DNA of 64,000 bases from Candidatus Parcubacteria bacterium. GTDB taxonomy: Bacteria; Patescibacteriota; Minisyncoccia; JAHIHE01; JAGLIN01. The stretch is taken from the NCBI GenBank assembly GCA_023132875.1, contig JAGLXN010000007.1, positions 1,262 through 65,261 on the forward strand, given 5' to 3'. Each line of letters opens with the position of its first letter. The first letter of the stretch is position 1. This document shows, piece by piece, positions 4,721 to 63,950 of the stretch. The position numbers and the translations under genes are program-made. A model generated the notes under the pieces. It worked only from the letters and a program-made list of their open reading frames with translations, searched no databases and was not told the origin of the DNA.

Positions 4721-6334
4721 CTATTTATACTTAAATCTATCAACAACCGCGTAAGCTATATTATCAGAATGATCTCCAATTCTTTCTAAATTTGTCAAAA
4801 TCTCAGTAAAATATTTTCCTTTCTCTAAAGAACATATTCCTTTATTCATTCTCTCTAAATGATTGCTATGAGATTTTTTTACTATTTCATCTACTTTATT
4901 TTCATGCTTTATAATTTCATAAGCAAGCTTTAAATTATCTTCTTCTAAAGATTTTATAACAAGATTTTGCATAATTTTTAATTTACCGAATATCGCAGTG
5001 AGTTCTCGGATCGCTTTCTCGGAAAATTCCATTCTGTCTTCTTTTATATCAACGAACAATTCAGAAACGGTTAAAACATGATCAGAAAGATGCTCTAAAT
5101 CAGTTGTAATGTGCATCAAGCTATAAAGCTTCATTAGATCTTTTTTATTAAGATTTTGCTGTGAAATCTGTGCTAGATATTCTGAGATTTTTCCTGTCAT
5201 TTCGTCCATTTCTTTCTCGTATTCTTCAACTTTTTTAAGCAAATCAGTTTTATTTTCAAAAAATATTAATTTTGATACTTCTAACATTTCATTTACAGTT
5301 TTTGCCATATCCACAACAGCACGATTAGCTTGTCCAAGAGCAACAGAGGGAGTATAAAGTAATTTTCTACTCAAATAGGAAAGCTTGGACTCTTCAGTCT
5401 TAATCTCCGGAGTATGTTTGTTTATAAATTTTGCTATAAAAGGAATAAACGGAAGAAATATTAAAGCGGTTATAATATTATACAGCGTATGCCCATTTGC
5501 TATTTGCCTTCCCATGTCATCTGAGGTAATGCTTGCTAAATAATCAAAGTATTTGAAAAACAATAAGAAAAATATAATTCCGAATATATTAAATAACAAA
5601 TGCATAATAGCAATGCTGGTCAAAAAACCTTTTCGCTTGAGACCCATATAAATAACTTTCAAGCTTGAACCAAGATTTACGCCCAAGATCATAAAAAGAG
5701 CCGTGCTGAGATCCACAATTTGCGTTGCTCCAAGCGCGACAATAATAACGGAAGTCGCGCTGCTGCTTTGCAGTAATAATGTAAGAAAAGCTAAAATAAA
5801 TATATAAGCAATTTTGACAGAACTAAACTGATTGATAAAATCAATAGCTATTTGATTATGGGAAACAGATTGCATTCCGTTAAAAACAAAATACATTCCC
5901 AGGAATAAAAAACTGAATCCGATAATAGCTTCCCCAATATTCTTTTTTATTTTACGGACAGCAAAAATGTGAATGAAGACTCCGACCGTTAAAATCGGCA
6001 AAGCATAAATTCCTATCTGAAAAGAAGCAAGCTGAGTTGTTATTGTGCTTCCAATATTAGCGCCAAGCATAGCGGAAACAGCTCCGCTATAACCCAAAAG
6101 ACCAGCACTCATAAATCCGATAAGCATTGTAATTGTAGTGCTGCTGCTTTGAATTACGGCTGTTATTCCCGTACCAATCGCTAATCCCTTTATTGGATTA
6201 TCATTCGTTTTTCTAAGCGTTTCTTCCAGCTTAAACCCCATGATTTTTTGTAAACTAACACCCAAAAGATGAATCCCATAAAGAAGAATGGCAAGCCCTC
6301 CTACTATTTCAAATATTGTTGTTAGTTCAAGCAT
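4721..6334 (-). CDS. Na+/phosphate cotransporter family protein with C-terminal PhoU-like domain
   Basis: Multi-TM N-terminal half with the GxxxxSSSxT repeats typical of NptA/YjbB. C-terminal helical PhoU-like region. Confidence 0.8.
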   Translation of the reverse strand: MLELTTIFEIVGGLAILLYGIHLLGVSLQKIMGFKLEETLRKTNDNPIKGLAIGTGITAVIQSSSTTITMLIGFMSAGLLGYSGAVSAMLGANIGSTITTQLASFQIGIYALPILTVGVFIHIFAVRKIKKNIGEAIIGFSFLFLGMYFVFNGMQSVSHNQIAIDFINQFSSVKIAYIFILAFLTLLLQSSSATSVIIVALGATQIVDLSTALFMILGVNLGSSLKVIYMGLKRKGFLTSIAIMHLLFNIFGIIFFLLFFKYFDYLASITSDDMGRQIANGHTLYNIITALIFLPFIPFIAKFINKHTPEIKTEESKLSYLSRKLLYTPSVALGQANRAVVDMAKTVNEMLEVSKLIFFENKTDLLKKVEEYEKEMDEMTGKISEYLAQISQQNLNKKDLMKLYSLMHITTDLEHLSDHVLTVSELFVDIKEDRMEFSEKAIRELTAIFGKLKIMQNLVIKSLEEDNLKLAYEIIKHENKVDEIVKKSHSNHLERMNKGICSLEKGKYFTEILTNLERIGDHSDNIAYAVVDRFKYK

Positions 6335-6342
6335 GGAATTAA

Positions 6343-6450
6343 ATTGTTAGATTGTTGAATTGTTGAATTGTTGAATTGTTGAATTGTTGAATTGTTGAAT
6401 TGTTGAATTGTTGAATTGTTGAATTGTTGAATTGTTGAATTGTTGAATTG
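6343..6450. repeat. perfect 8-bp tandem repeat (TTGAATTG)x~13, i.e. (CAATTCAA)n on the minus strand
   Basis: Read directly. It abuts the nptA-like start codon (6334, minus strand) and forms its 5' leader. It creates the spurious ORF 6322..6864. Confidence 0.95.
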
Positions 6451-6899
6451 TGCTATGCATATGTAACAATAGAACAATTTAACAATAGAGCAATATAATT
6501 TTATTTTAATACTTCTGTGTTTTATGTAAAGTGTATAAGTAGTTTTGTCTTCAGTAGTGTTGAACAGATCCTGATATCCATCAAGATAAACTCCGTATAT
6601 TTTCTGCTTGTTTATATGTTTAAATGTTAATATGTTAAAATGATTTATGGGGTTGACAAATTTTCTCAGTGTGATATAGTGTTTCGTGAAGTTGAATTTT
6701 GATATTTGATTAAAATGAGACTTCAAAAATAAAGAATCTATGCAATGCACCATGAGCTGTATGCAACTGCACAAAATGCAGTAGATCAAGGAGTAGTGAG
6801 AAGAAGCATGAAATCGGAAATAGCAGAAGTCGGAAAAGAAAAATATGATACCTTTGTAAGCCACTCAGGCCCCGCATTCCAGCTACACCGAAGATAACT

Positions 6900-7840
6900 G
6901 GTACCCAAGATCCCGGCATTTGATTAGCAACAATTTGAAAAAGTTGTTGCAGAGAGGTGAAAATGATTTGAAAATCGCCCTTTGAAAAGGGTAAGGTCCG
7001 TTTCGGCTTTGTTTGCTAGGAACAAGGGACCTCAAAAAAGACAAGAAAAAATTCCCGCTCTGAAGCGGAAAGACCTGCTCGATCTCGAGGCGTACACATT
7101 CTGGTTATCCAGAACTGCCCGAGAAGTTTGCCGGTCATGAGGAGCGATGGACTGCGCCAAGTTGCATGTAATGAAAGTAAGAATGAATGGCGACTCCATG
7201 TACGCTCCAGAAGAAAGGTATTCCCGCTGTCCCCTCGGAATATGAGGGACGAAGAAAAGATTAGTAAAGAAGAAATTTGTAATAGTGGGACATACTAAGA
7301 TCGGTGGGAGCTTTGTTGGCTACTAGTTCGGGAAGATCGTTTTACCCGAAAATAGCGCCATGACGAGACCGCTGGTCAAAAATTTAAGATAAGATGATTG
7401 GAATTTTGAAACATTTTCTGTATCTCTTTCTCAACTAGAATAGATATTATTTGCTCTCTCGACCTAAAGGATTGGCGGAGAAAAAAGAATAAGTAAACTG
7501 TTCTAAAGTCAAGAGAGATTTTGGCGCCAAGAGGAAATTTACAAAAAATTCGACACCCCCATTTCAATCACATGTGTTGAACAAAAATTAACTGGGCACC
7601 TGCCGCCCGAATACCAACGAGGAGATCTGCATGATTTTTAAAAAAATAAAATTCTAACAAACCGCTCCCTTTCTTTTAGGGAGCTAACGGAGCAGCGAAA
7701 AAGTCTGTAGGTAGCATATCAAGCTTTAAATGACTATGTCAGCCTACTACTTATTCTTCAAACCGGCACCAAGGCCTGTTTTTTTTGTTGTTTAAATTAT
7801 TTAGAGGTGATGGGCACCTTGAGGATGCCCGTCACCAAAA
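6900..7840. ncRNA. GC-rich (~45-50%) ORF-free region, candidate structured RNA gene(s) of unknown class
   Basis: The 940 bp have no ORF longer than 70 codons in any frame. GC is markedly above the ~30% genomic background, and the region has many local stems (e.g. aggtcc...ggacct at ~6995-7040). I could not match tmRNA, RNase P, SRP or rRNA signatures by eye. Confidence 0.35.
7803..7838 (-). terminator. stem-loop immediately downstream of tgt
   Basis: ggtgatgggcacc..ggatgcccgtcacc gives an 11-bp stem with one G:U, 4 bp past the tgt stop. No clean U-tract, so terminator function is uncertain. Confidence 0.3.
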
Positions 7841-14172: not shown

Positions 14173-14291
14173 AGTTTTGATTAGTGAATTTTTGAATGCT
14201 ATTACATTGTTGCATTGTTAAATTGCTAAATTGTTATGCGTGGCATAGCAATACAGCAATTTAACAATTTAACAATTTAACAATTTAAATT

Positions 14292-16037: not shown

Positions 16038-16955
16038 ATGCAGTCAACACAACAAATTAGAAGACAAATCCAGTCAACAAAAAACACCTCGCAAATAACA
16101 AAAGCGATGGAAATGGTTGCTGCTTCAAAAATGAAAAAAAGTCAGGAGGCGGCTTTATTAGCTAGGCCTTACGCGGAAGCTGCTTTAAGTTTATTGGAAA
16201 ATGTCAGCGAATCAGTTGAACCGCGAAAACATATTTTATTGGAAAATAGAGAAAAGAAAAATGTCTGTCTTTTTGTTGTTACTTCCGATAAAGGATTGTG
16301 CGGCGGGTTGAATAGCGGTGTTATTAAAAAGGCTTTGCAAATAATCAGAAAAAATGAAAGCGAGGGCAGAAAAATTAGTATTGTCGCTATTGGAAAAAAG
16401 GCGGAAAACTATTTTAAGAGAACAAAAAACGATGTTATCGCAGTTTTTAACGGCATCGGTGATTCAGTGGAATTGCGTGAAACGCTTCCTATTTCAAAAT
16501 TACTGATTAACGATTTTAGAGATAAAAAATTTGATAAAGTAATTGCAGTTTACACAAACTTTATTTCTACTTTAAAACAAGATTCTAGAGCTAAAACTAT
16601 TTTACCAGTTACCAGAAGAAGTTTGGAAGAAACAATAGAAGAAATAGATGATTTAGCCATTAAAAATGGTGAAAACGGTAACGAAAATAATGGCATGGAA
16701 TATAAATTTGAACCATCACCTAGTGAAGTTTTATGCAAACTGCTTCCTAATCTGATTGAAATACAGTCTTATCACATTATTCTTGAATCAAACGCTTCAG
16801 AACATAGCGCCAGAATGGTTGCGATGAAAAGCGCGACTGACAGCGCATTGGAAATGCTTGATGATTTGAATTTATTATATAATTATACAAGACAGCAAAA
16901 AATTACTCAAGAAATAAGTGAAATTTCAGCAGGAGTGGCGGCGCAGGAGAATTAG
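16038..16955 (+). CDS. atpG: F0F1 ATP synthase subunit gamma
   Basis: 305 aa with the conserved gamma N-terminus (IRRQIQSTKNTSQITKAMEMVAASKMKK) and C-terminal helix. Confidence 0.9.
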   Translation: MQSTQQIRRQIQSTKNTSQITKAMEMVAASKMKKSQEAALLARPYAEAALSLLENVSESVEPRKHILLENREKKNVCLFVVTSDKGLCGGLNSGVIKKALQIIRKNESEGRKISIVAIGKKAENYFKRTKNDVIAVFNGIGDSVELRETLPISKLLINDFRDKKFDKVIAVYTNFISTLKQDSRAKTILPVTRRSLEETIEEIDDLAIKNGENGNENNGMEYKFEPSPSEVLCKLLPNLIEIQSYHIILESNASEHSARMVAMKSATDSALEMLDDLNLLYNYTRQQKITQEISEISAGVAAQEN

Positions 16956-17111
16956 TTAAAAGTTTATAAAGTTATAAAGTTCATAAAGTTGGTGAATTAA
17001 TAACTTTTTACTTTATAAACTTTATAACTTTAGATTAAATACGCACATTGAAAATTTAGAGATTGAGTTTTGGAAAAATACAAAAAATGATTCAAAAAAA
17101 TGGAGGATTGA

Positions 17112-20252: not shown

Positions 20253-21204
20253 CCAATCCCTCAAAATTTCCACCAATAAACTTAAATTACAAAACATTCC
20301 TTCCGCCGACCTTGATGCGGAAGTTTTGTTATTGGAAGCGTTAAATAGAAGTAGATATAAAAAATTAGACAAAAGCTGGTTGTATATAAATGATAATTAC
20401 GAATTAAACAAAAACGAAGAAAAATTATTTAATAGTTTTATAAATCAAAGATTAAAAAACAAGCCAGTTGCTTATATAATAAATAGAAAAGAATTTTATG
20501 GCTACGATTTTTATGTTGACGAAAATGTTCTGATCCCCCGCCCTGAAACAGAATTCATTGTTGAAGAAGTTTTGAAAATTTTAAACCCCCTTAGCCCCCC
20601 CATTCGGCTATCGCTCGGAGCAGGCTCTTATCAGAGGGAAAATAGCGATTTCACTCTAATTGACATTGGAACTGGTTCGGGTTGCATAATAATAAGCGTT
20701 TTAAATGAGCTTGCAAAAAGAAAAGGAGATGATGTTGTAGAAAACGCTTACGCAAATGATATTTCTTTAAAAGCAATCAAAATCGCAAAACGCAACGCAA
20801 ATAAATATAACTTGAACAAAAAAATAAAATTTGTCGCAAATGATTTTGAAAAATTTTTAAATAAAAAAAATATTTATAACTCCGACGAACTTGTCATTAC
20901 AGCTAATCTTCCATATATAAAAAATGATGATTACAAAAATCTTTCTAAAAATATAAAAAAGTACGAACCCAAGATTGCGCTTGCAGCGGGAAAAGACGGA
21001 CTCGTCTATATAGAAAAATTAGTTGATTCTGTATTAAAAATCAAGAAAAAATACAAGCAAAAAATATATGTTCTTATTGAAGCAGATCCAAATCAAATGA
21101 GTAAAATAACTGCTATAATAAACAAAAAATCAGCTAACGCGCGTATTAAAATAATTAAAGATTTGAGCGGAAAAAAAAGAATTGCCGTATTGTCATATTG
21201 CTAA
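20242..21204 (+). CDS. prmC: release factor glutamine N5-methyltransferase PrmC/HemK
   Basis: LIPRPETE, the SAM motif IDIGTGSGC, and the NPPY-equivalent NLPY. Start placed at the MNIHQSL ATG (20242); the ORF-track N-terminal extension reads through the leader repeats. Carries a GC-rich ~23-aa insertion at ~20585-20655. Confidence 0.8.
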   Translation: MNIHQSLKISTNKLKLQNIPSADLDAEVLLLEALNRSRYKKLDKSWLYINDNYELNKNEEKLFNSFINQRLKNKPVAYIINRKEFYGYDFYVDENVLIPRPETEFIVEEVLKILNPLSPPIRLSLGAGSYQRENSDFTLIDIGTGSGCIIISVLNELAKRKGDDVVENAYANDISLKAIKIAKRNANKYNLNKKIKFVANDFEKFLNKKNIYNSDELVITANLPYIKNDDYKNLSKNIKKYEPKIALAAGKDGLVYIEKLVDSVLKIKKKYKQKIYVLIEADPNQMSKITAIINKKSANARIKIIKDLSGKKRIAVLSYC

Positions 21205-21267
21205 ATTGTTATATTATTATTGCGTTATGCATAACAATTTGACAATAGAGCAATTCAACAATTTAAA

Positions 21268-25448: not shown

Positions 25449-25474
25449 TTTATAAATTATAAAATTTAAACTTC

Positions 25475-25560
25475 GTTTATTTAGTGTAAACATTAGTTTT
25501 TTTGGTGTTTTCTGTAGAAGACACTAATAAAACTAATATTTACACTAAGAAAACTAAAAC
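25475..25560. repeat. nested inverted-repeat element (tagtgta..attagtt / aactaatatt..cacta family)
   Basis: ttagtgtaaacattagttttt..gacactaataaaactaatatttacactaa. Related copies at 22..155, 37471..37560 and 63811..63950. Confidence 0.8.
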
Positions 25561-25863: not shown

Positions 25864-26254
25864 ATTTTTGTTTTGTTTTAAGTTATTTTAAGCTTAAATT
25901 TAATAATTTAAACTACTACACAATATAACTTATGTTAATATATAATAGCTATTATGTCAAGATAAAGACATTTTAACATATGAACATACTAACATTTTAA
26001 CAAGAATTTTTATTTAGTTTTTTGAAATATGATAATTTAAATTATGTTAAAATGTTTAAATGTTACTATGTTAAAATGATTTTGGTATTGACGAAAAATC
26101 AATTTAAATATATAATTAAAAAATCGTTTCTAGTCACGGAAGACTAGGTTTTGCAAAAACCTAAGTAAGAGGAGAAAAACTAAAAACTACAATAAAGTCT
26201 TCTGCTGATTGAACTAAAACAACTAAAACAAAAATAAAAAAACAAAACCGGGAT

Positions 26255-35112: not shown

Positions 35113-35682
35113 TTACAATTCAATTCCATCAACCAGCTCCTCATAATTTAAACTTGTATATTTCCAATTCTCTGGCAATTTATGTTTTTGAAAATTATAT
35201 ATTGTATAATGGTAATGGTTTTTAAAATCTTTCGCGTCTCTTATTATGTGGTCATAAAATGATTTTTGCCATTTGAATTTTGGGATTAAAGTTTGATTTT
35301 GTACGTGTTTTTGGATAAATTTGGTTTGATAATTTTTAATTAGATCCCGCATCCGAAGGCGACACGTCGACGTGTCGCCTTCGTTATGATTATTCATAAT
35401 AATATAATTTATATCCCTTGATATATTCTCTTTTAATGACCTCATTATTTTTGAAATATTAAATTCATTATTTGGATGAATCATTAAATTTAAATGATCA
35501 TAAATTATGCAAAACCCATATAATTTAAATTTCTTTACTTCTTTACATAATTTTAATTCTTCAACCAACAATTCGCAAAATATTAACTCTTTAAAATACG
35601 GAAAATTTTGAAATGTTTTTGTGACGATGAAATAAACATTATTATCTATAAAATCACGCTTTTGTGAATTGCGATGCTGCAT
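35113..35682 (-). mobile_element. REP-associated tyrosine transposase (RAYT / IS200-like Y1) family protein, HUH motif degenerate
   Basis: C-terminal KWQKSFYDHIIRD..NHYHYTIYN matches the RAYT WQ(R/K)x(Y/F)(Y/W)DHxIR...YIxxNP motif. The HUH position reads DHLNL. A REP-like palindrome lies inside the ORF. Confidence 0.55.
35352..35381. repeat. REP-like perfect palindrome cgaaggcgacacgtcgacgtgtcgccttcg
   Basis: 30-bp perfect palindrome, GC-rich, in frame within the RAYT gene. A related copy is at 62825..62851. Confidence 0.85.
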
Positions 35683-37470: not shown

Positions 37471-37560
37471 TTAGTTTACTTAGTGTAATTATTAGTTGTT
37501 CTAGTGTTTTATCTATAAAACACTAAAGAAACTAACGCTCACACTAAAAAAACTAAAACG
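37471..37560. repeat. nested inverted-repeat element, subfamily B
   Basis: ttagtttacttagtgtaattattagtt...cactaaagaaactaacgctcacactaaaaaaactaaaacg. Its tail matches the 25475..25560 copy. Confidence 0.75.
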
Positions 37561-37576
37561 CAATCTACAACAAATC

Positions 37577-38299
37577 TCAATCCAACACCACTACATTTTT
37601 ACAATATTTCTTTAACTTCTTAGACATTTTTTCTAGTTCTTCTTTTTCGTAAGGTTTTACATTTTCAAAACTATTGTGTAAAGTTTTTTCTGATCTGAAA
37701 TTCTGGATTGAATAACGAAATAATTTTGGAAAAATATTTTTACTAATTCTATTTATCCAATTTATCATCTCATCAAAATCTTCCTGATTGACATATCCAG
37801 GCACAACCGTTGTTCGAAGTTCTAATTTACTTTCACTGTCTGTAATCAAGCTTATACTTTTTTCTATATTTTCTATAATATCATCTTTTTTCGTCATAGT
37901 CTTATATTTTTCCGGAGTTGTTTTTATGTCTATTGCCCAATAATCAACCAAATTATCCTTTACCAAATCAGAAACAACGCTAAAATGAGATCCATTAGTA
38001 TCAACTTTCACCAAAAATCTCATCTCTTTTATTTTTTTTATAAATTCTTTCAAACCAAGCTGTAAAGTCGGCTCTCCACCCGTAATACAAACTCCATCCA
38101 AGTCCCCTTTTCTTAATTCTAAAAATTCTAATATTTCTTTCTCCTTTATTTTATTTTCATAATCAATTAATTTTACATCCACCAATTCAGGATTATGACA
38201 AAACGGACAACGAAAATTACATCCCATAGTAAAAACAACCGCGGCAATTCTCCCCGGATAATCTAACATTGTAAATTTTTGAAATCCACCGATAAACAT
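37577..38299 (-). CDS. nrdG: anaerobic ribonucleoside-triphosphate reductase activating protein
   Basis: Radical-SAM CNFRCPFCHN, GGEP, and size typical of NrdG. Confidence 0.85.
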   Translation of the reverse strand: MFIGGFQKFTMLDYPGRIAAVVFTMGCNFRCPFCHNPELVDVKLIDYENKIKEKEILEFLELRKGDLDGVCITGGEPTLQLGLKEFIKKIKEMRFLVKVDTNGSHFSVVSDLVKDNLVDYWAIDIKTTPEKYKTMTKKDDIIENIEKSISLITDSESKLELRTTVVPGYVNQEDFDEMINWINRISKNIFPKLFRYSIQNFRSEKTLHNSFENVKPYEKEELEKMSKKLKKYCKNVVVLD

Positions 38300-38318
38300 A
38301 CAGCAAATTAATCATATT

Positions 38319-38420
38319 TATTTATTCGTGATTCGTGTTTATTCGTTTCACACTTGTATAAATTCGTTTTGGAACAAATTTATACGAATTGATTACGAAT
38401 TTTCACGAATCACGAATTAA
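38319..38420. repeat. imperfect ~100-bp inverted repeat built from ATTCGTG units
   Basis: tattcgtgattcgtgtttattcgtttcacacttgtataaattcgt ... acgaatttatacgaattgattacgaattttcacgaatcacgaat. It fills the whole nrdD-nrdG spacer. Confidence 0.8.
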
Positions 38421-38438
38421 ACGATTATTAGTGTTTAT

Positions 38439-40175
38439 TTATATCGCCGCTGTAATGATATCAGGATACTTTGCAACATCTTTTTTTGCCAGCCTGTATG
38501 AAGTTCCTTCTCCCGGAGTTGCTTCAAGATTATAAAGTCCTCCTGTTTCTTTCTGATATTCTATAATCCTGTCGCGCATAAATTCTAAAACTTCTTGGGC
38601 AAATTTGTTGCCTTTCTTAGTAGTAATATCCGTCTTTGGTCCGAGAAAATTCTGTAAAGATTCGTTCATTCCTATAATTCCAATAGTTGAGAAATGATTG
38701 CTCCAATATTCCCCTCTTTGAAGTTTTATATTAGCGAGAAAATGTTTTGAATATGGATATAAGCCTTTTTCCGTAAAATTTTCAAGGGTTTTCCTTTTGA
38801 TTTCCAAACTTTCTTTCGCAAGATCCATAACCCTTTCTAAATTATCATAGAAATTTTTCTTGCTTTTAGCTAAATATCCAATTCTTGGCAAGTTAATTGT
38901 TACAACTCCTATAGAGCCGGTAAGCGGATAAGCTCCAAATAATCCTCCTCCTCGCTTATAAAGCTCTCTATTATCAAGACGCAATCTACAGCACATTGAT
39001 CTGGCGTCTTCCGGCTTCATATCGCTATTCACATAATTTGCAAAATATGGAATACCATATTTTGCAGTCATTTCCCAAATCGGTTCAAGATCTGGATCAT
39101 CCCAATTGAAATCGTCTGTTATATTATATGTTGGAATGGGAAAAGTAAAAACTCTTCCAGAAGCGTCTCCTTCTAGCATAATTTCAGCAAAAGCTTTGTT
39201 CAAAAGGCTTATTTCGTTTGTAAAGTCTTTATATTGTTCTTTTTGAGGAACTCCGCCAATCATAACAGCTTCGTCCGCAAGAGTTGAAGGGACCGTCAAA
39301 TCCATAGTTATGTTTGTAAATGGTGTTTGAAATCCGACTCGCGTTGGAACATTCATATTAAATACAAATTCCTGAATGGCTTGCTTTATGTCACGATAAG
39401 CAAGCTGGTCGTATCTGATAAAAGGAGCAAGAAGAGTGTCAAAATTTGAAAAAGCCTGAGCGCCAGCAGCTTCTCCTTGAAGCGTATAGAAAAAATTTAC
39501 AATTTGCCCTAGCGCTGATTTAAAATGTTTTGGGGCTTTGCTCTCGCTCTTCCCGCTAACTCCTCCAAATCCTTGAGAAATTAAATCTTTTAAATCCCAC
39601 CCGCAGCAATAAACCGCGAGAAGTCCAAGATCGTGAATATGAAAATCACCTTTATTATATGCTTCTCTTATTTCTGGCGGATAAATTTTTTCAATCCAAT
39701 ATTTTGAAGTTATTACATTGGCTATATAATTATTCAAACCTTGCAATGAATAGGACATATTGCTATTTTCTTTGACCTGCCAATCAATTTCTTTTAAATA
39801 GTCATCAACAAGATCCACTGATTTTTTTAGAACATCATGGCTTTCTCTTAAAAGCCTATGCTGTTCCCTGTATATTATATAAGCTTTTGCCGTATCAATA
39901 TAATTTTCCCTAATCAAAAAGTTTTCAACAATATCTTGCACTTCTTCAACGGTAGGAATTTCCGCTTTTATTTTTCCTCCGCCATTCCTAACAGTAAATC
40001 TTTTATTTATTTCACAATCTACTTTCTTCGCCAATTCCTGCGCGTTGCGTTTATTTCCCTCGCCAGTAGCAGTTAACGCTTTATAAACCGCCTTAACAAC
40101 TTTGCCCTTTTCAAATTTCACAACCCTGCCATCTCTTTTTCTGATTTGTTTCACTTTTATTTTTTTTGAATTCAT
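38439..40175 (-). pseudogene. nrdD: class III anaerobic ribonucleotide reductase NrdD, C-terminally truncated (no Zn-ribbon/glycyl-radical domain)
   Basis: ATP-cone N-terminus and the finger-loop SMCCRLRLD are present. The ORF stops after ...YRLAKKDVAKYPDIITAAI at 578 aa, and no C-terminal C4 zinc ribbon or RVxGY glycine-radical motif follows. The downstream 140 bp is repeat DNA. Confidence 0.6.
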
Positions 40176-40379
40176 TATATCTTCTCATTAATATGTTTAA
40201 AATAAAGCCTTAATCTATTACTTAAGTCAAACAAAAAACTGCCTTAAAACTGCCGTATTACTTCTATCATACAATAACAATTTAGCAATTTAGCAATTTA
40301 GCAATTTAAACATCCAGAAATTTCATAAATCTTCTTATCAAAAAATCTATTCTTTGCAAGACTTAATTTTTAATGTCAA

Positions 40380-41588
40380 CTATTTGTCTTTTTTCATTTT
40401 TTTTCTGATAAACGCCGGAACATCATATTCATCACCAGCATCTATAGAATTTATTTTTGATGAAAATATATTATCATCTCGTTTGATCTCAGAATTAATT
40501 TCCTTAAACTCTCTTTTACTTGTTTCTTTTGGTTTAGTTTCTTCGTCATTACTATCTTCTTCTTTTTTTAATATATTTTCTAAATCATTTATTCTCCCAA
40601 TATTATCGCTTACAGAATCTTTTTTATTAGACTGTCCTTCAAAACCAGTTGCGATTACCGTAACCTTAATATCTCCCTTTTTTAAATTTTCATCTGTAAT
40701 AGCGCCAAATATAACTTTTGCCTCATCGTCAATAAATTCCGTTATAACATTCGCGGCCTCGCTTACTTCCATCATTGTTAAATCAGCTCCGCCACTAACA
40801 TTAAACAAAACACCATTTGCGCCGTCGATAGACAATTCTAAGAGAGGGCTATTAATTGCTTGCTTGGCCGCTTCAGCCGCCCTATTCTCACCAGACGCTT
40901 TTCCAATGCCCATCAATGAAGAACCTGTATTTTGCATAATAGATTTCACATCGGCAAAATCCACATTTACAATTCCTGGAAGAGTTATTAAATCTGAAAT
41001 TCCCTGTACGCCTTGCCTTAATATATCATCCGCGATTTTAAACGAATCCAGCAATAAAGTTTTCTTTTCTATTACCTGAAGTATTTTATCATTGGGAATA
41101 GTTATAATTGTATCAACTTGATTCCTTAAATTCTCCAGACCCTCTTCGGCAATTCTCCTTCTTTGAATTCCTTCAAACATAAATGGCTTGGTTACAACCG
41201 CGACAGTAAGAGCACCAGCTTCCTTAGCGGCTTCTGCAATAATTGGCGCGGCTCCAGTCCCCGTTCCTCCTCCGAGTCCGCAAGTTATAAAAACCATATC
41301 TGTATTCTTTAAAACATCCTGAATTTCATCTTTATTCTCTTCTGCCGCCTGTCTTCCTATATCAGCATTCATTCCAGCGCCAAGCCCTCTAGTTAAATTT
41401 TTCCCAATGTGGATTTTTTCCGTAGATCTGCAATGATGAAGATCTTGAGAATCCGTATTTATGCCAATAAACTCAACCCCGCTCAATCCCTCTTCAATCA
41501 TTCTGCTTATAACATGATTACCGCTACCGCCAACGCCAACTACCTTAATCCTGGCAAATGTCTCAAATTCCGGTTTAATTTCTTTCAT
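40380..41588 (-). CDS. ftsZ: cell division protein FtsZ
   Basis: GVGGSGNH and the tubulin signature GGGTGTG. Confidence 0.95.
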
Positions 41589-41720
41589 ATATTTAAATTT
41601 TAGATTGTTATACTATTATATTGCTAAATTGTTACATTGCTATACTGCTATAATAGCTTTTTTTGAAAATTTAGGCAAATCTATTTGGAATTATGAATCA
41701 GGAGTTATGAATTAAAAATA

Positions 41721-42110
41721 TTATAATTTCTTTTCCATCAAAACAGAAGTTTTCTTATCTTGTATTATTTTATATCCTAATCTTTGATATAATTTTTTAG
41801 CTGGATTACTTTTAAAAACAGTAAGTTGAATTTTACTTATATTTTTTTGAAACGCTTTTTTTTTCAATTAATTTCATTAAATAAGTTCCTACTCCTTTGC
41901 CCTTCATTAATCCAGAAACTTGCATATTCTCAAAATAAAAAAGTTTGGGTTCTGTAGCAAAATTGGTAATCTTGCAACATTGCTTTCCGAATAGTTAAAT
42001 TTAATTTGCCAACTTTTATTTTCATAATTAAACTATATTATCTTCCTTCTCGCCAAATCTGGAATAATTTTATTTTTCACAATCGGAGAAATCTCCACCA
42101 AATCACTCAT
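41721..42110 (-). pseudogene. GNAT N-acetyltransferase pseudogene (frameshifted)
   Basis: Minus-strand pieces MSDLVEISPIVKNKIIPDLA..(stop)..QVSGLMKGKGVGTYLMKLIEKKAF..KIQLTVFKSNPAKKLYQRLGYKII sit in different frames and are joined at A-homopolymers. They parallel the intact GNAT at 44726..45196. Confidence 0.6.
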
Positions 42111-42252
42111 ATTTTTTGCACATCCTATCTAATGTTTTACTTATTGAGTCCAGTTTTTTAATAAAACCCCTAAATTGATCTCTTAAATCTATTAAAATAG
42201 CTAAAACTTCCTCTTCGGTATATTTTTTCTTTTGCTTTATTATCTTTCTCAT
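42103..42252 (-). CDS. 49-aa ORF overlapping the GNAT pseudogene start (possible antitoxin-like partner)
   Basis: MRKIIKQKKKYTEEEVLAILIDLRDQFRGFIKKLDSISKTLDRMCKKYE. Its stop overlaps the GNAT ATG in ATGAGTGA. No SD. Coding status is unproven. Confidence 0.25.
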   Translation of the reverse strand: MRKIIKQKKKYTEEEVLAILIDLRDQFRGFIKKLDSISKTLDRMCKKYE

Positions 42253-42309
42253 CTCTAAAAATAAAACTAATTTAAAAAATGCTTAATACTTACTACTAAC
42301 TACCTCTTC

Positions 42310-43563
42310 TTACGGCAAAAAAGTTTTAAAAATCTTTCTCACTTTTTGCCCAACTCCGCCCAACGATGGCAGTTTAAATTTTCCGCCGCTAGAGGAAAAA
42401 ACTCCGTTTTCATCAGCTTCCCACATAATAAGCCCCATCACCGTAGCAAATGAAGGATCATCAACCCTATCAATTATTCCATTTAACTCAATAGGAAAAC
42501 CGACTTGCGCCGGCAGTCTAAGAGTTTCTTTCGCCATAGCAACAATTCCAGGCATTTTAGCGCCGCCACCGGTTATAACAGCTCCTGCCGGAAGCATGCC
42601 GCTTCTGTCAATTTTTTTAAGCTCTTTGTCTACCATTACAAATATTTCTTCAACTCTCGCTTCAATAATTTCTGCAATATACTTTCTGGTAAAAACTCCT
42701 TCTTCGTTTTTGTCAATCTGAGAAAGATCTATCTTATCTTTCTTGCTTATTTCCGCGGTAAGCACTGTACCGTACTCAAGTTTTATTTTTTCAGCAACAT
42801 CGATTGAGGTTCTGAGCCCTATAGCAATGTCATTCGTAATATGTCCTGCTCCGATCGGAATAACAGTTGAATGCAATATATTACCATCTTCAAAAACAGA
42901 AATTCCAGTCGTGCCTTTTCCAATATCAATTACAACCACGCCTAATTCTCTTTGGCGCTTTAACAAAACCGCTTTCGCGGCGGCAAGAGGAGAAAAAACC
43001 AAATCATCTATATCAATTCCGCAGCGCTGTATGCATTTATATAAATTTTTTATAAATGGAACTGACCCTTCGACCACTAAGGCATTTACTTCTAACCGCA
43101 CGCCATTCATTCCTATTGGATCTTTTATTTGTTCTTGTCCGTCAATCGTATAACTGCACGGAATCACATCAATTATTTCCTTATTATTTGGCATTGATAT
43201 TGCTTGTGAAGCAATAATAACTCTGTTTATGTCTTCCTCACTGATTTCTCCATCTGCCCTTGAAACAGCAACAACGCCTTTGGAAAATTGAGAACATATA
43301 TGATTTCCATTTATACTCACGAACGCATGTTCAACTGGGATTCCTGCTGTTCTTTCTGCTAATTCCTTTGATTTAGTTATTGCATTGATAGTTTCTTCAA
43401 TATCAACAACAACTCCATTATTAATCCCAAATGAAGGAGCCGTTCCAACTCCTAAAATTAGAGGCTTTGACTCTTCTCCCTGTTTCTGAGAAATAACAGT
43501 TCGAACAGCGCTAGCCCCAATATCAATTCCTATTAAAATATCTCCTCTTGACATAGAATTCAT
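42310..43563 (-). CDS. ftsA: cell division protein FtsA
   Basis: Actin-fold ATPase with DIGASAVR and FtsA-specific regions. Located immediately upstream of ftsZ. Confidence 0.9.
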   Translation of the reverse strand: MNSMSRGDILIGIDIGASAVRTVISQKQGEESKPLILGVGTAPSFGINNGVVVDIEETINAITKSKELAERTAGIPVEHAFVSINGNHICSQFSKGVVAVSRADGEISEEDINRVIIASQAISMPNNKEIIDVIPCSYTIDGQEQIKDPIGMNGVRLEVNALVVEGSVPFIKNLYKCIQRCGIDIDDLVFSPLAAAKAVLLKRQRELGVVVIDIGKGTTGISVFEDGNILHSTVIPIGAGHITNDIAIGLRTSIDVAEKIKLEYGTVLTAEISKKDKIDLSQIDKNEEGVFTRKYIAEIIEARVEEIFVMVDKELKKIDRSGMLPAGAVITGGGAKMPGIVAMAKETLRLPAQVGFPIELNGIIDRVDDPSFATVMGLIMWEADENGVFSSSGGKFKLPSLGGVGQKVRKIFKTFLP

Positions 43564-44155: not shown

Positions 44156-44281
44156 ACATATTAAATTGTTAAACTGCCAAATTGTTAAACTGCCATGCCA
44201 TATATAACAATACAGTAATTTAACAATGTAGCAATGTGATTTTTATTAAAAACGCCAATCCATAAATTTCCAAATAAAAAT

Positions 44282-51834: not shown

Positions 51835-51973
51835 CAAAAAAATCCAAAGCTCAAATTACCTCAAATTATTCCAAATCAAATCCAAAACCCAAAATCTAAA
51901 AAGATTCTTAAATCATTTGAAATTTAGATTTGATTTGGAATAATTTGAATTTTGAAATAATTTGGATTTATCG

Positions 51974-58930: not shown

Positions 58931-59509
58931 TTATTTTTCCCTCCTCCATCTTTTTAAAAAATTGCACAAAATAATATTGGTTTCCATACCCAAGGATCTG
59001 TCTTGAGCTTTTGTTTCACATTCCATTATGATAAATGAAATTTATTAATTGCGCCGTCCCCTCTCAGGACAAATTCTATCTATAATTTCGTTATAAACAA
59101 AATTTGTCCTGAGAAGATGATACTTTTATTTTTGCTATAAAAAAGCCTACCTATTGCGTAGGTTGCTTTTAATTTGGTCTCTTCTCTATTCTTTATTTTT
59201 AACCAGATTAAAAGCAAACTACCTAATTAGTAGGCTAATCACTTTCACAGTATAAGCAGTAACAACTCTGCTAATTGCAGCACCATAAGTCTCCATAAAA
59301 GTTTTTTACTTTATTACTAAACAGTAGACTTGTTGCGTAATTAATTTCGTAGCGTCCGCCCTGAGCGGATGAGACAAATTTTTCAAACAATTCTTGAGGT
59401 TTAGCCTAAGCTAAGCTGAAGAAATTTTTGGAAAATTTGACCAAAATATGGAAATTGCAGTAGGAACTAATTACGTGACAAGTCTAATATAGCAGGTTTA
59501 AAGAATTTG

Positions 59510-63810: not shown

Positions 63811-63950
63811 TGGATTACGAAATTCTATTTTTAGTTATCTTCGCGTGAATATTAGTTCAATTAGCGTTTATTATAGGAAACATTAATAAAACTAATATTC
63901 ACGCTAAACAAACAAATTATAAGAGTTTTGTAATTTAAAAATATTAACAA
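63811..63950. repeat. nested inverted-repeat element, subfamily A (right window end)
   Basis: ggattacgaaattctatttttagttatcttcgcgt(a/g)aatattagtt... is shared with the first 150 bp of the window. Confidence 0.8.

Follow-up and report, generated by a model that had tools for sequence, protein, structure and literature searches.

In a 64,000-nt stretch of a Candidatus Parcubacteria bacterium genome (hereafter the window; low-GC DNA, 32.7%), the nrdD gene of a class III ribonucleotide reductase (RNR) lacks the part encoding the glycyl-radical loop. We found this part as a separate small gene on the same scaffold. Class III RNRs are described as homodimers in which a single chain bears the active site as well as the glycyl radical. 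We propose, with a probability of about 0.8, that fission of nrdD gave rise here to a functional, non-covalent two-chain class III RNR formed by the product of the window gene (NrdD-N) and that of the small gene (NrdD-C). This reading is based on the occurrence of both genes in the same genome, on the gapless tiling of their products, on purifying selection acting on both and on congruent phylogenies.

The product of nrdD-N is identical to P0001 (MCK4591909.1). As noted in an earlier description made from the letters of this stretch (hereafter the original prediction), it keeps the ATP-cone and the finger-loop motif SMCCRLRLD (Table 1), the latter invariant in full-length relatives (alignment columns S398-D406), and ends before the zinc ribbon and the RVxGY motif. 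The Pfam NRDD match (PF13597) covers aa 136-575 of the protein (E = 6.5e-144) and only positions 1-435 of the 562 of the profile. NCBIfam NF006126 was matched over the first part of its 684 positions with 870 bits (cut-off 548), as was TIGR02487 over that of its 581 positions. Similarly, in a search of solved structures NrdD-N aligned to residues 100-511 of the 651 of Thermotoga maritima NrdD. According to profile coverage, about 130 C-terminal residues are absent, comprising the last barrel strands, the zinc ribbon and the glycyl-radical loop RVxGY, and alignment to full-length NrdD confirmed the missing region. In the 64-kb window, a regular expression RVxG[FYW] and a tblastn search with two full-length NrdD C-termini both returned chance matches only, none of the former in a plausible open reading frame (ORF), and no full-length NrdD was detected. 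The activase gene nrdG, 139 bp downstream of nrdD-N, is complete, as had been claimed: its product carries the CxxxCxxC cluster motif CNFRCPFC at aa 27-34 and scored 203 bits against TIGR02495 (NrdG2; cut-off 131 bits).

P0073 is the closest full-length relative, with 724 aa and 75% identity across the N part, and we took its last 143 aa as query for the missing part. This returned numerous proteins of about 130-160 aa with 70-81% identity; in all, 166 short proteins were retrieved, with 87 complete cluster representatives of 129-165 aa. In the complete proteins (n = 87), an initial Met and a leader rich in Lys (median length 17 aa, 25% Lys) precede (P/H)(F/Y)YTNS(S/T)QLPVG..., after which come Cys/His zinc ligands and RVVGY. 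One NrdD-C of 156 aa, P0270, is encoded on the window's own scaffold (ZHAN22-2_SAMN18200500_METAG-scaffold_1, 831,018 bp) and is the kind of stand-alone small glycyl-radical protein that the original prediction had suggested looking for. It begins with MTKKTTKEK..., carries Cys97, 110, 113 and 119 and RVVG127Y, and is annotated at NCBI as 'hypothetical protein KAT63_00170' (MCK4591836.1). P0270 was located via cluster membership, the P0139 scan of genome contigs having been made on a set without the window's own genome. Some 465 kb separate the two genes; were the scaffold a closed circle, the opposite route between them would measure about 366 kb. The accessions of both halves fall in one NCBI block (MCK4591909 and MCK4591836), and a second genome also has both (P0007/P0283, that is MCK4799536/MCK4799483).

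NrdD-N and P0270 together tile NF006126 (2-551 and 550-683) and TIGR02487 (1-451 and 452-579) end to end; P0270 also matched Pfam NRDD at 420-562 and aligned to T. maritima NrdD residues 518-644. Since the profile range of P0270 is exactly the stretch absent from NrdD-N, the missing piece is P0270. Pairwise ratios of nonsynonymous to synonymous substitution rates (dN/dS) were 0.027-0.047 for nrdD-N, at dS from 0.7 to above 2; for nrdD-C the median was 0.045 and the highest value 0.13. Both genes are under strong purifying selection.

In T. maritima NrdD, the zinc ribbon separates the last barrel strand from the C-terminal radical-Gly loop, which dips into the barrel and meets the finger loop (PMC4493059). 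NrdD-C starts about 75 residues ahead of its first zinc ligand and thus carries the last beta-alpha-beta barrel units, not the glycyl-radical domain alone. From these barrel units we infer an intimate association of both chains by fragment complementation. Pfam detected only NRDD in P0270 and no Gly_radical domain of the pyruvate formate-lyase (PFL) type. Separately, a tandem duplication of nrdD-C was observed in two GTDB genomes (L012, 10001-10462 and 10590-11051; L018, 10001-10411 and 10867-11277), with a partial ftsE copy between both nrdD-C copies in L018; it could be real or an assembly artefact.

The original prediction had offered a truncated pseudogene as one possibility: a deletion, perhaps repeat-mediated, would have taken the 3′ end of nrdD and left a decaying remnant. 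The absence of about 130 C-terminal residues next to a repeat-rich spacer would fit such an event. However, a search of a large protein collection gave 72 distinct homologues (P0001-P0072), 78-100% identical to NrdD-N, each of 573-585 aa and all ending within a few residues of ...PDIITA; this length range sets aside intein insertions and N-terminal gene-call differences (P0017, P0057, P0065). Moreover, copies bearing an intein of about 320 aa between VGFQ and TPFT (P0012, P0025, P0033, P0042 and P0046) keep it in frame and have an unchanged C-terminal end. Given this conserved end point, a dN/dS of about 0.04, a missing part that survives, conserved, at another locus of this genome, and relatives with the same truncation which lack the repeat, decay of the gene is extremely improbable.

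A second possibility was that mis-assembly, or a collapse at the palindrome of the spacer, had cost an otherwise normal full-length gene its 3′ end, as assemblies can break at long palindromes. The independent Logan assembly of SRR13892600 (a 3,056-bp contig) was nevertheless identical to the window at every base across nrdD-N, spacer and nrdG. The homologues are drawn from many metagenomes and assemblers, the gene order ftsA, ftsZ, nrdD-N, nrdG is kept across the loci of relatives, and the same protein end was found in relatives with different spacers, even one of 21 bp. The C part is itself assembled in a separate, conserved gene context. We therefore regard an assembly error as having next to no chance of being correct. 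Thus, nrdD-N is neither a pseudogene nor a mis-assembly.

The spacer itself matched its first description, an imperfect inverted repeat of ATTCGTG units with no coding potential: the two arms of the palindrome (38321-38368 and 38373-38420) are 75% complementary and contain ATTCGTGATTCGTG and its reverse complement, and stop codons are abundant in all six frames. As RNA, the palindrome gave a folding energy of -44 kcal/mol (z = -7.5 against shuffled sequences). The proposed tie between this palindrome and the truncation did not hold. It is absent from L091, L093, L097 and L106; at NrdD-N identities of 94%, 92% and 84%, the spacers of relatives measure 158, 196 and 97 bp and bear no relation to that of the window, two of them carrying ordinary GC-stem/T-run hairpins; and only 21 bp separate nrdD-N from nrdG in the deepest member of the clade. 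The spacer palindrome is unrelated to the nrdD split. A deletion scar or a conserved regulatory RNA was likewise rejected for the ATTCGTG palindrome, as it is not kept in close relatives. Rfam scans of both the nrdD-N and nrdD-C loci gave sub-threshold noise only, with no intron, riboswitch or known RNA.

Inteins and introns bear on another alternative, in which protein trans-splicing by a split intein, or RNA trans-splicing, would rejoin the halves covalently into a single-chain NrdD. Inteins are indeed common in the NrdD of this lineage, at the site described above in P0012 and others and at a second site, before TSYRL, in P0156. However, Pfam found only the ATP-cone and NRDD; neither the end of N nor the beginning of C showed an intein or Hint domain. 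The termini read ...IITAAI and MTKKTTKEK, N closes with a stop codon and C opens with an ATG of its own, and neither gene lies beside an Rfam intron or other RNA family. We judge rejoining very improbable. P0108 also bears an intein between VGFQ and TPFT, a site corresponding to window position ~39310; the window copy of nrdD-N carries none.

The gene neighbourhoods of nrdD-C were constant. On the scaffold (locus L100), nrdD-C lies between prfB and ftsE/ftsX. In the window's clade prfB always precedes it, and ftsE and ftsX come next in L100 and in the P0139 loci L003-L010; among GTDB representative genomes they follow nrdD-C in 10 of 12, the contigs of L015 and L021 ending at nrdD-C. No nrdD-N or nrdG was found within 10 kb of nrdD-C in these prfB-ftsEX loci. 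This constant placement points to a single relocation of nrdD-C to the prfB-ftsEX locus in the window's clade. Cell-division genes flank both halves, in the window (40380-43563, ftsA and ftsZ) and in L100 (8901-12324, ftsE and ftsX), and do so clade-wide.

We compared N and C phylogenies by distance trees without support values (neighbour-joining for N). In the N tree, the clade with the remote split (P0001-P0072) is monophyletic and sister to the full-length P0073/L022. A second truncated clade (P0075-P0091 and P0108), with tails of 34-66 aa after LEATP, branches apart, and all other relatives are full-length. The C tree mirrors this topology, remote-split nrdD-C being sister to the C-terminus of P0073/L022; the congruence indicates that the halves co-evolved vertically. 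In the second clade (L026, L103, L104, L105) the split is in place: nrdD-C directly follows nrdD-N and precedes nrdG, and in L103/L104 and L026 the order is ftsA, ftsZ, nrdD-N (608 aa), a gap of about 110-160 bp, nrdD-C (145 aa) and nrdG. L105 has an extra 533-aa ORF (6196-7797), without Pfam match, between nrdD-C and nrdG. The fission point falls in a short variable linker between ...YPDIITA and PYYTNS, and the trees suggest that this linker was either split twice or split once with re-fusion in P0073/L022. A library-wide phmmer search with P0139 also returned short NrdD-C-like proteins from more distant lineages (P0313, P0332, P0308), which may be further independent splits or gene-call fragments. 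In P0312 and P0324, distant NrdD C-termini are fused to a thioredoxin/NrdH-like CPNC domain.

A working scheme for the two-chain enzyme can be drawn from these assignments. NrdD-N would bind substrate and effectors and carry the thiyl cysteine, with its ATP-cone, the greater part of the 10-stranded barrel and the finger loop with its Cys-Cys motif. NrdD-C (P0270), with its Lys-rich leader, the last beta-alpha-beta barrel units, the Cys/His zinc ribbon and RVVG127Y, would complete the barrel. The N and C chains would assemble non-covalently, by barrel fragment complementation, into an (N-C)2 enzyme. NrdG, encoded beside NrdD-N, would generate the glycyl radical at Gly127 of NrdD-C, from where it would pass to the finger-loop cysteine of the large chain, like in single-chain NrdD. 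We placed the split by alignment to the solved T. maritima structure and the published domain description, not by a predicted model.

The halves could instead be decoupled, NrdD-N and/or NrdD-C having taken on roles of their own: N might, for instance, bind nucleotides as a regulator, and C might carry a radical for some other enzyme. That the genes lie far apart in different operon contexts is in keeping with this idea. However, the finger-loop CC, the zinc ligands and RVVGY are all kept across both pieces, and nrdD-N is still next to nrdG, whose product has no known substrate other than the Gly of the C piece. The congruence of the N and C phylogenies speaks in the same direction, and the barrel strands of C make sense only within the barrel of N (T. 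maritima alignment; PMC4493059). Separate functions thus seem unlikely. Several points weigh against a two-chain RNR nonetheless. The physical association of the N and C chains is deduced from sequence; nrdD-N and nrdD-C are not co-transcribed, and a shared operator was looked for without any specific one being found; a second, full-length RNR may be encoded elsewhere in the 831-kb genome, outside the window. Finally, an AlphaFold2 single-chain model of P0073, built with 27 close homologues, was too poor to be used (mean predicted local distance difference test 50, predicted template modelling score 0.37).

A bolder version of the two-chain enzyme would take NrdD-C as an adaptive, exchangeable 'radical cartridge', its detachment being selected rather than tolerated. 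The cell could then make NrdD-C, have NrdG activate it and renew it once oxygen had cut it at Gly127, all separately from the 578-aa core. If so, NrdD-C would be the obligate class III counterpart of GrcA, and the positions of ftsE/ftsX beside C and of ftsA/ftsZ beside the core would tie deoxynucleotide supply to cell division. At least two independent splits of the same linker in Parcubacteria, which are apparent only, would argue for selection. We put this forward tentatively and consider it rather doubtful.

Table 1. Coordinates of the split nrdD gene, its activase and the palindromes (window positions unless scaffold_1 is named).
Feature	Position	Strand	Remarks
nrdD-N, N-terminal fragment of split class III RNR	38439..40175	-	578 aa, TAA stop, end ...KYPDIITAAI
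ATP-cone domain of nrdD-N, aa 10-107	39855..40148	-	Pfam PF03477, E = 4e-17
SMCCRLRLD, Cys-Cys finger-loop motif, aa 393-401	38973..38999	-	alignment with full-length relatives
nrdG, radical-SAM (S-adenosylmethionine) activase	37577..38299	-	240 aa; TIGR02495 NrdG2; Pfam Radical_SAM and Fer4_12
nrdD-N on scaffold_1	332,391-334,127		
nrdD-C (P0270) on scaffold_1	798,915-799,385	opposite to nrdD-N	
Imperfect palindrome, nrdD-N/nrdG spacer	38321..38420	.	48-nt arms, ATTCGTG units
Second long palindrome, just downstream of nrdG	37471..37556	.	42-nt arms, TTAGTGT units
Further palindromes	44-129, 14202-14288, 16952-17038, 21180-21263, 25472-25557		arms 22-48 nt
Further palindromes	25964-26083, 44162-44230, 51861-51948, 59062-59236, 63826-63921		arms 22-48 nt
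ORF like REP (repetitive extragenic palindrome)-associated tyrosine transposases	35113-35682	-	189 aa; NCBIfam NF047646; weak Pfam Y1_Tnp

The spacer palindrome has many companions in the window, where we counted at least 15 palindromes with arms of at least 22 nt. Thirteen of the 15 are intergenic, though only about 20% of the window is non-coding, and most sit just past a stop codon. They fall into families by their short unit: TTAGTGT, AAATTGYTA, AACATAT/TTTTAACAT, TAAAGTTA and ATTCGTG. A palindrome of the AACATAT type also lies 3′ of nrdD-C on the same scaffold (L100 10472-10618); of the ATTCGTG type, the window has just one more copy, which is partial. None of these palindromes matched an Rfam family. 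The transposase-like ORF of Table 1, directly downstream of comEC and 2 kb downstream of nrdG, scored 74.3 bits with NF047646, under the 80-bit cut-off; from this similarity it could be the mobilising enzyme of the intergenic palindromes. With moderate confidence, we consider the ATTCGTG hairpin to be one of the fast-evolving REP-like or terminator-like intergenic hairpins of this genome. Scans with promoter and terminator consensus sequences gave counts no higher than shuffled sequences in this AT-rich DNA.

Tandem 8-nt units are found upstream of nrdD-N (CAATTTAG, 3.5 copies, window 40268-40310), and CAATTTCC-like units upstream of nrdD-C (L100 9920-9965). The AAATTG/CAATTT 8-mers were considered as a shared operator of both halves and rejected, as many further intergenic stretches of the window contain such units; they are probably not specific to the split gene.

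If the two-chain reading is correct, NrdD has undergone a natural fission that places its radical-bearing module on a small subunit, remotely encoded in one Parcubacteria lineage, where the fission is widespread, and in place in a second. Many Parcubacteria genomes would then hold a conserved two-chain class III RNR in two gene arrangements, in which a separate chain provides the radical domain and the last barrel strands. Such an enzyme would offer a system for an open question on glycyl radicals, namely how the buried Gly loop exits to the activase and returns. Since the small genes go under 'hypothetical protein' in annotations and their large partners seem truncated, automated metabolic reconstructions may wrongly score RNR as defective in these genomes.

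Compared with canonical NrdD-NrdG systems (T4, 1H78; T. maritima, 4COI; Prevotella copri, 8P23), domains, motifs and activase are the same, and the nearest full-length relatives, P0073 and L022, share 75-76% identity in the N part and 74-81% in the C part. The difference lies in the chain, interrupted between the equivalents of T. maritima residues 511 and 518, with the C part encoded remotely. RNR-wide phylogenetic and structural surveys name split class II and no split class III enzymes (PMC9669993, PMC9531940), and targeted full-text literature searches returned no report of a split or truncated NrdD. The enzyme seems to be the first class III RNR that naturally comes in two pieces.

The nearest cellular likeness is NrdJa/NrdJb, the class II RNR of Pseudomonas aeruginosa and other Proteobacteria, similarly split at a single site into a large catalytic and a small C-terminal chain (Crona et al. 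2015, PMC4520616). There, both chains are required and form a dimer of heterodimers, and the small chain holds the C-terminal module containing a zinc finger (PMC4520616). NrdJa/NrdJb is B12-dependent whereas NrdD-N/NrdD-C is a glycyl-radical class III pair, and NrdJb only mediates thiol exchange while NrdD-C carries the radical cofactor and barrel strands (PMC4520616). Also, nrdJa and nrdJb are neighbours within one operon; the halves studied here lie about 465 kb apart on opposite strands and those of the sister clade are adjacent. In Aeromonas phage Aeh1, the class Ia NrdA is reportedly split into nrdA-a and nrdA-b by the mobE homing endonuclease, and the products are said to reassemble non-covalently into an active enzyme. 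That case differs in being viral and class I, with an inserted mobile endonuclease gene between adjacent pieces; no endonuclease was seen at either junction here.

The other likeness is to GrcA/YfiD of PFL, which the original prediction had invoked in proposing a glycyl-radical domain supplied in trans. A gene for such a supply does exist on the same scaffold, which supports that proposal; the analogy holds only in part. GrcA/YfiD is a small separate glycyl-radical-loop protein, activated by a radical-SAM activase, which supplies the radical to a large core in trans (PMC8683613; PMC13450708). GrcA backs up full-length PFL with an oxygen-cleaved domain, while NrdD-N has no glycyl-radical domain of its own, so that NrdD-C would be obligatory. 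Furthermore, NrdD-C corresponds to the true C-terminal third of NrdD, shows no homology to the PFL Gly_radical domain, and is larger than GrcA by its barrel strands and zinc ribbon. A review of June 2026 described formate lyases as the only class of glycyl-radical enzymes with known spare-part proteins (PMC13450708). With the pair described here, split RNRs of cellular organisms would extend beyond NrdJa/NrdJb, and the 'spare part' idea may reach beyond formate lyases.

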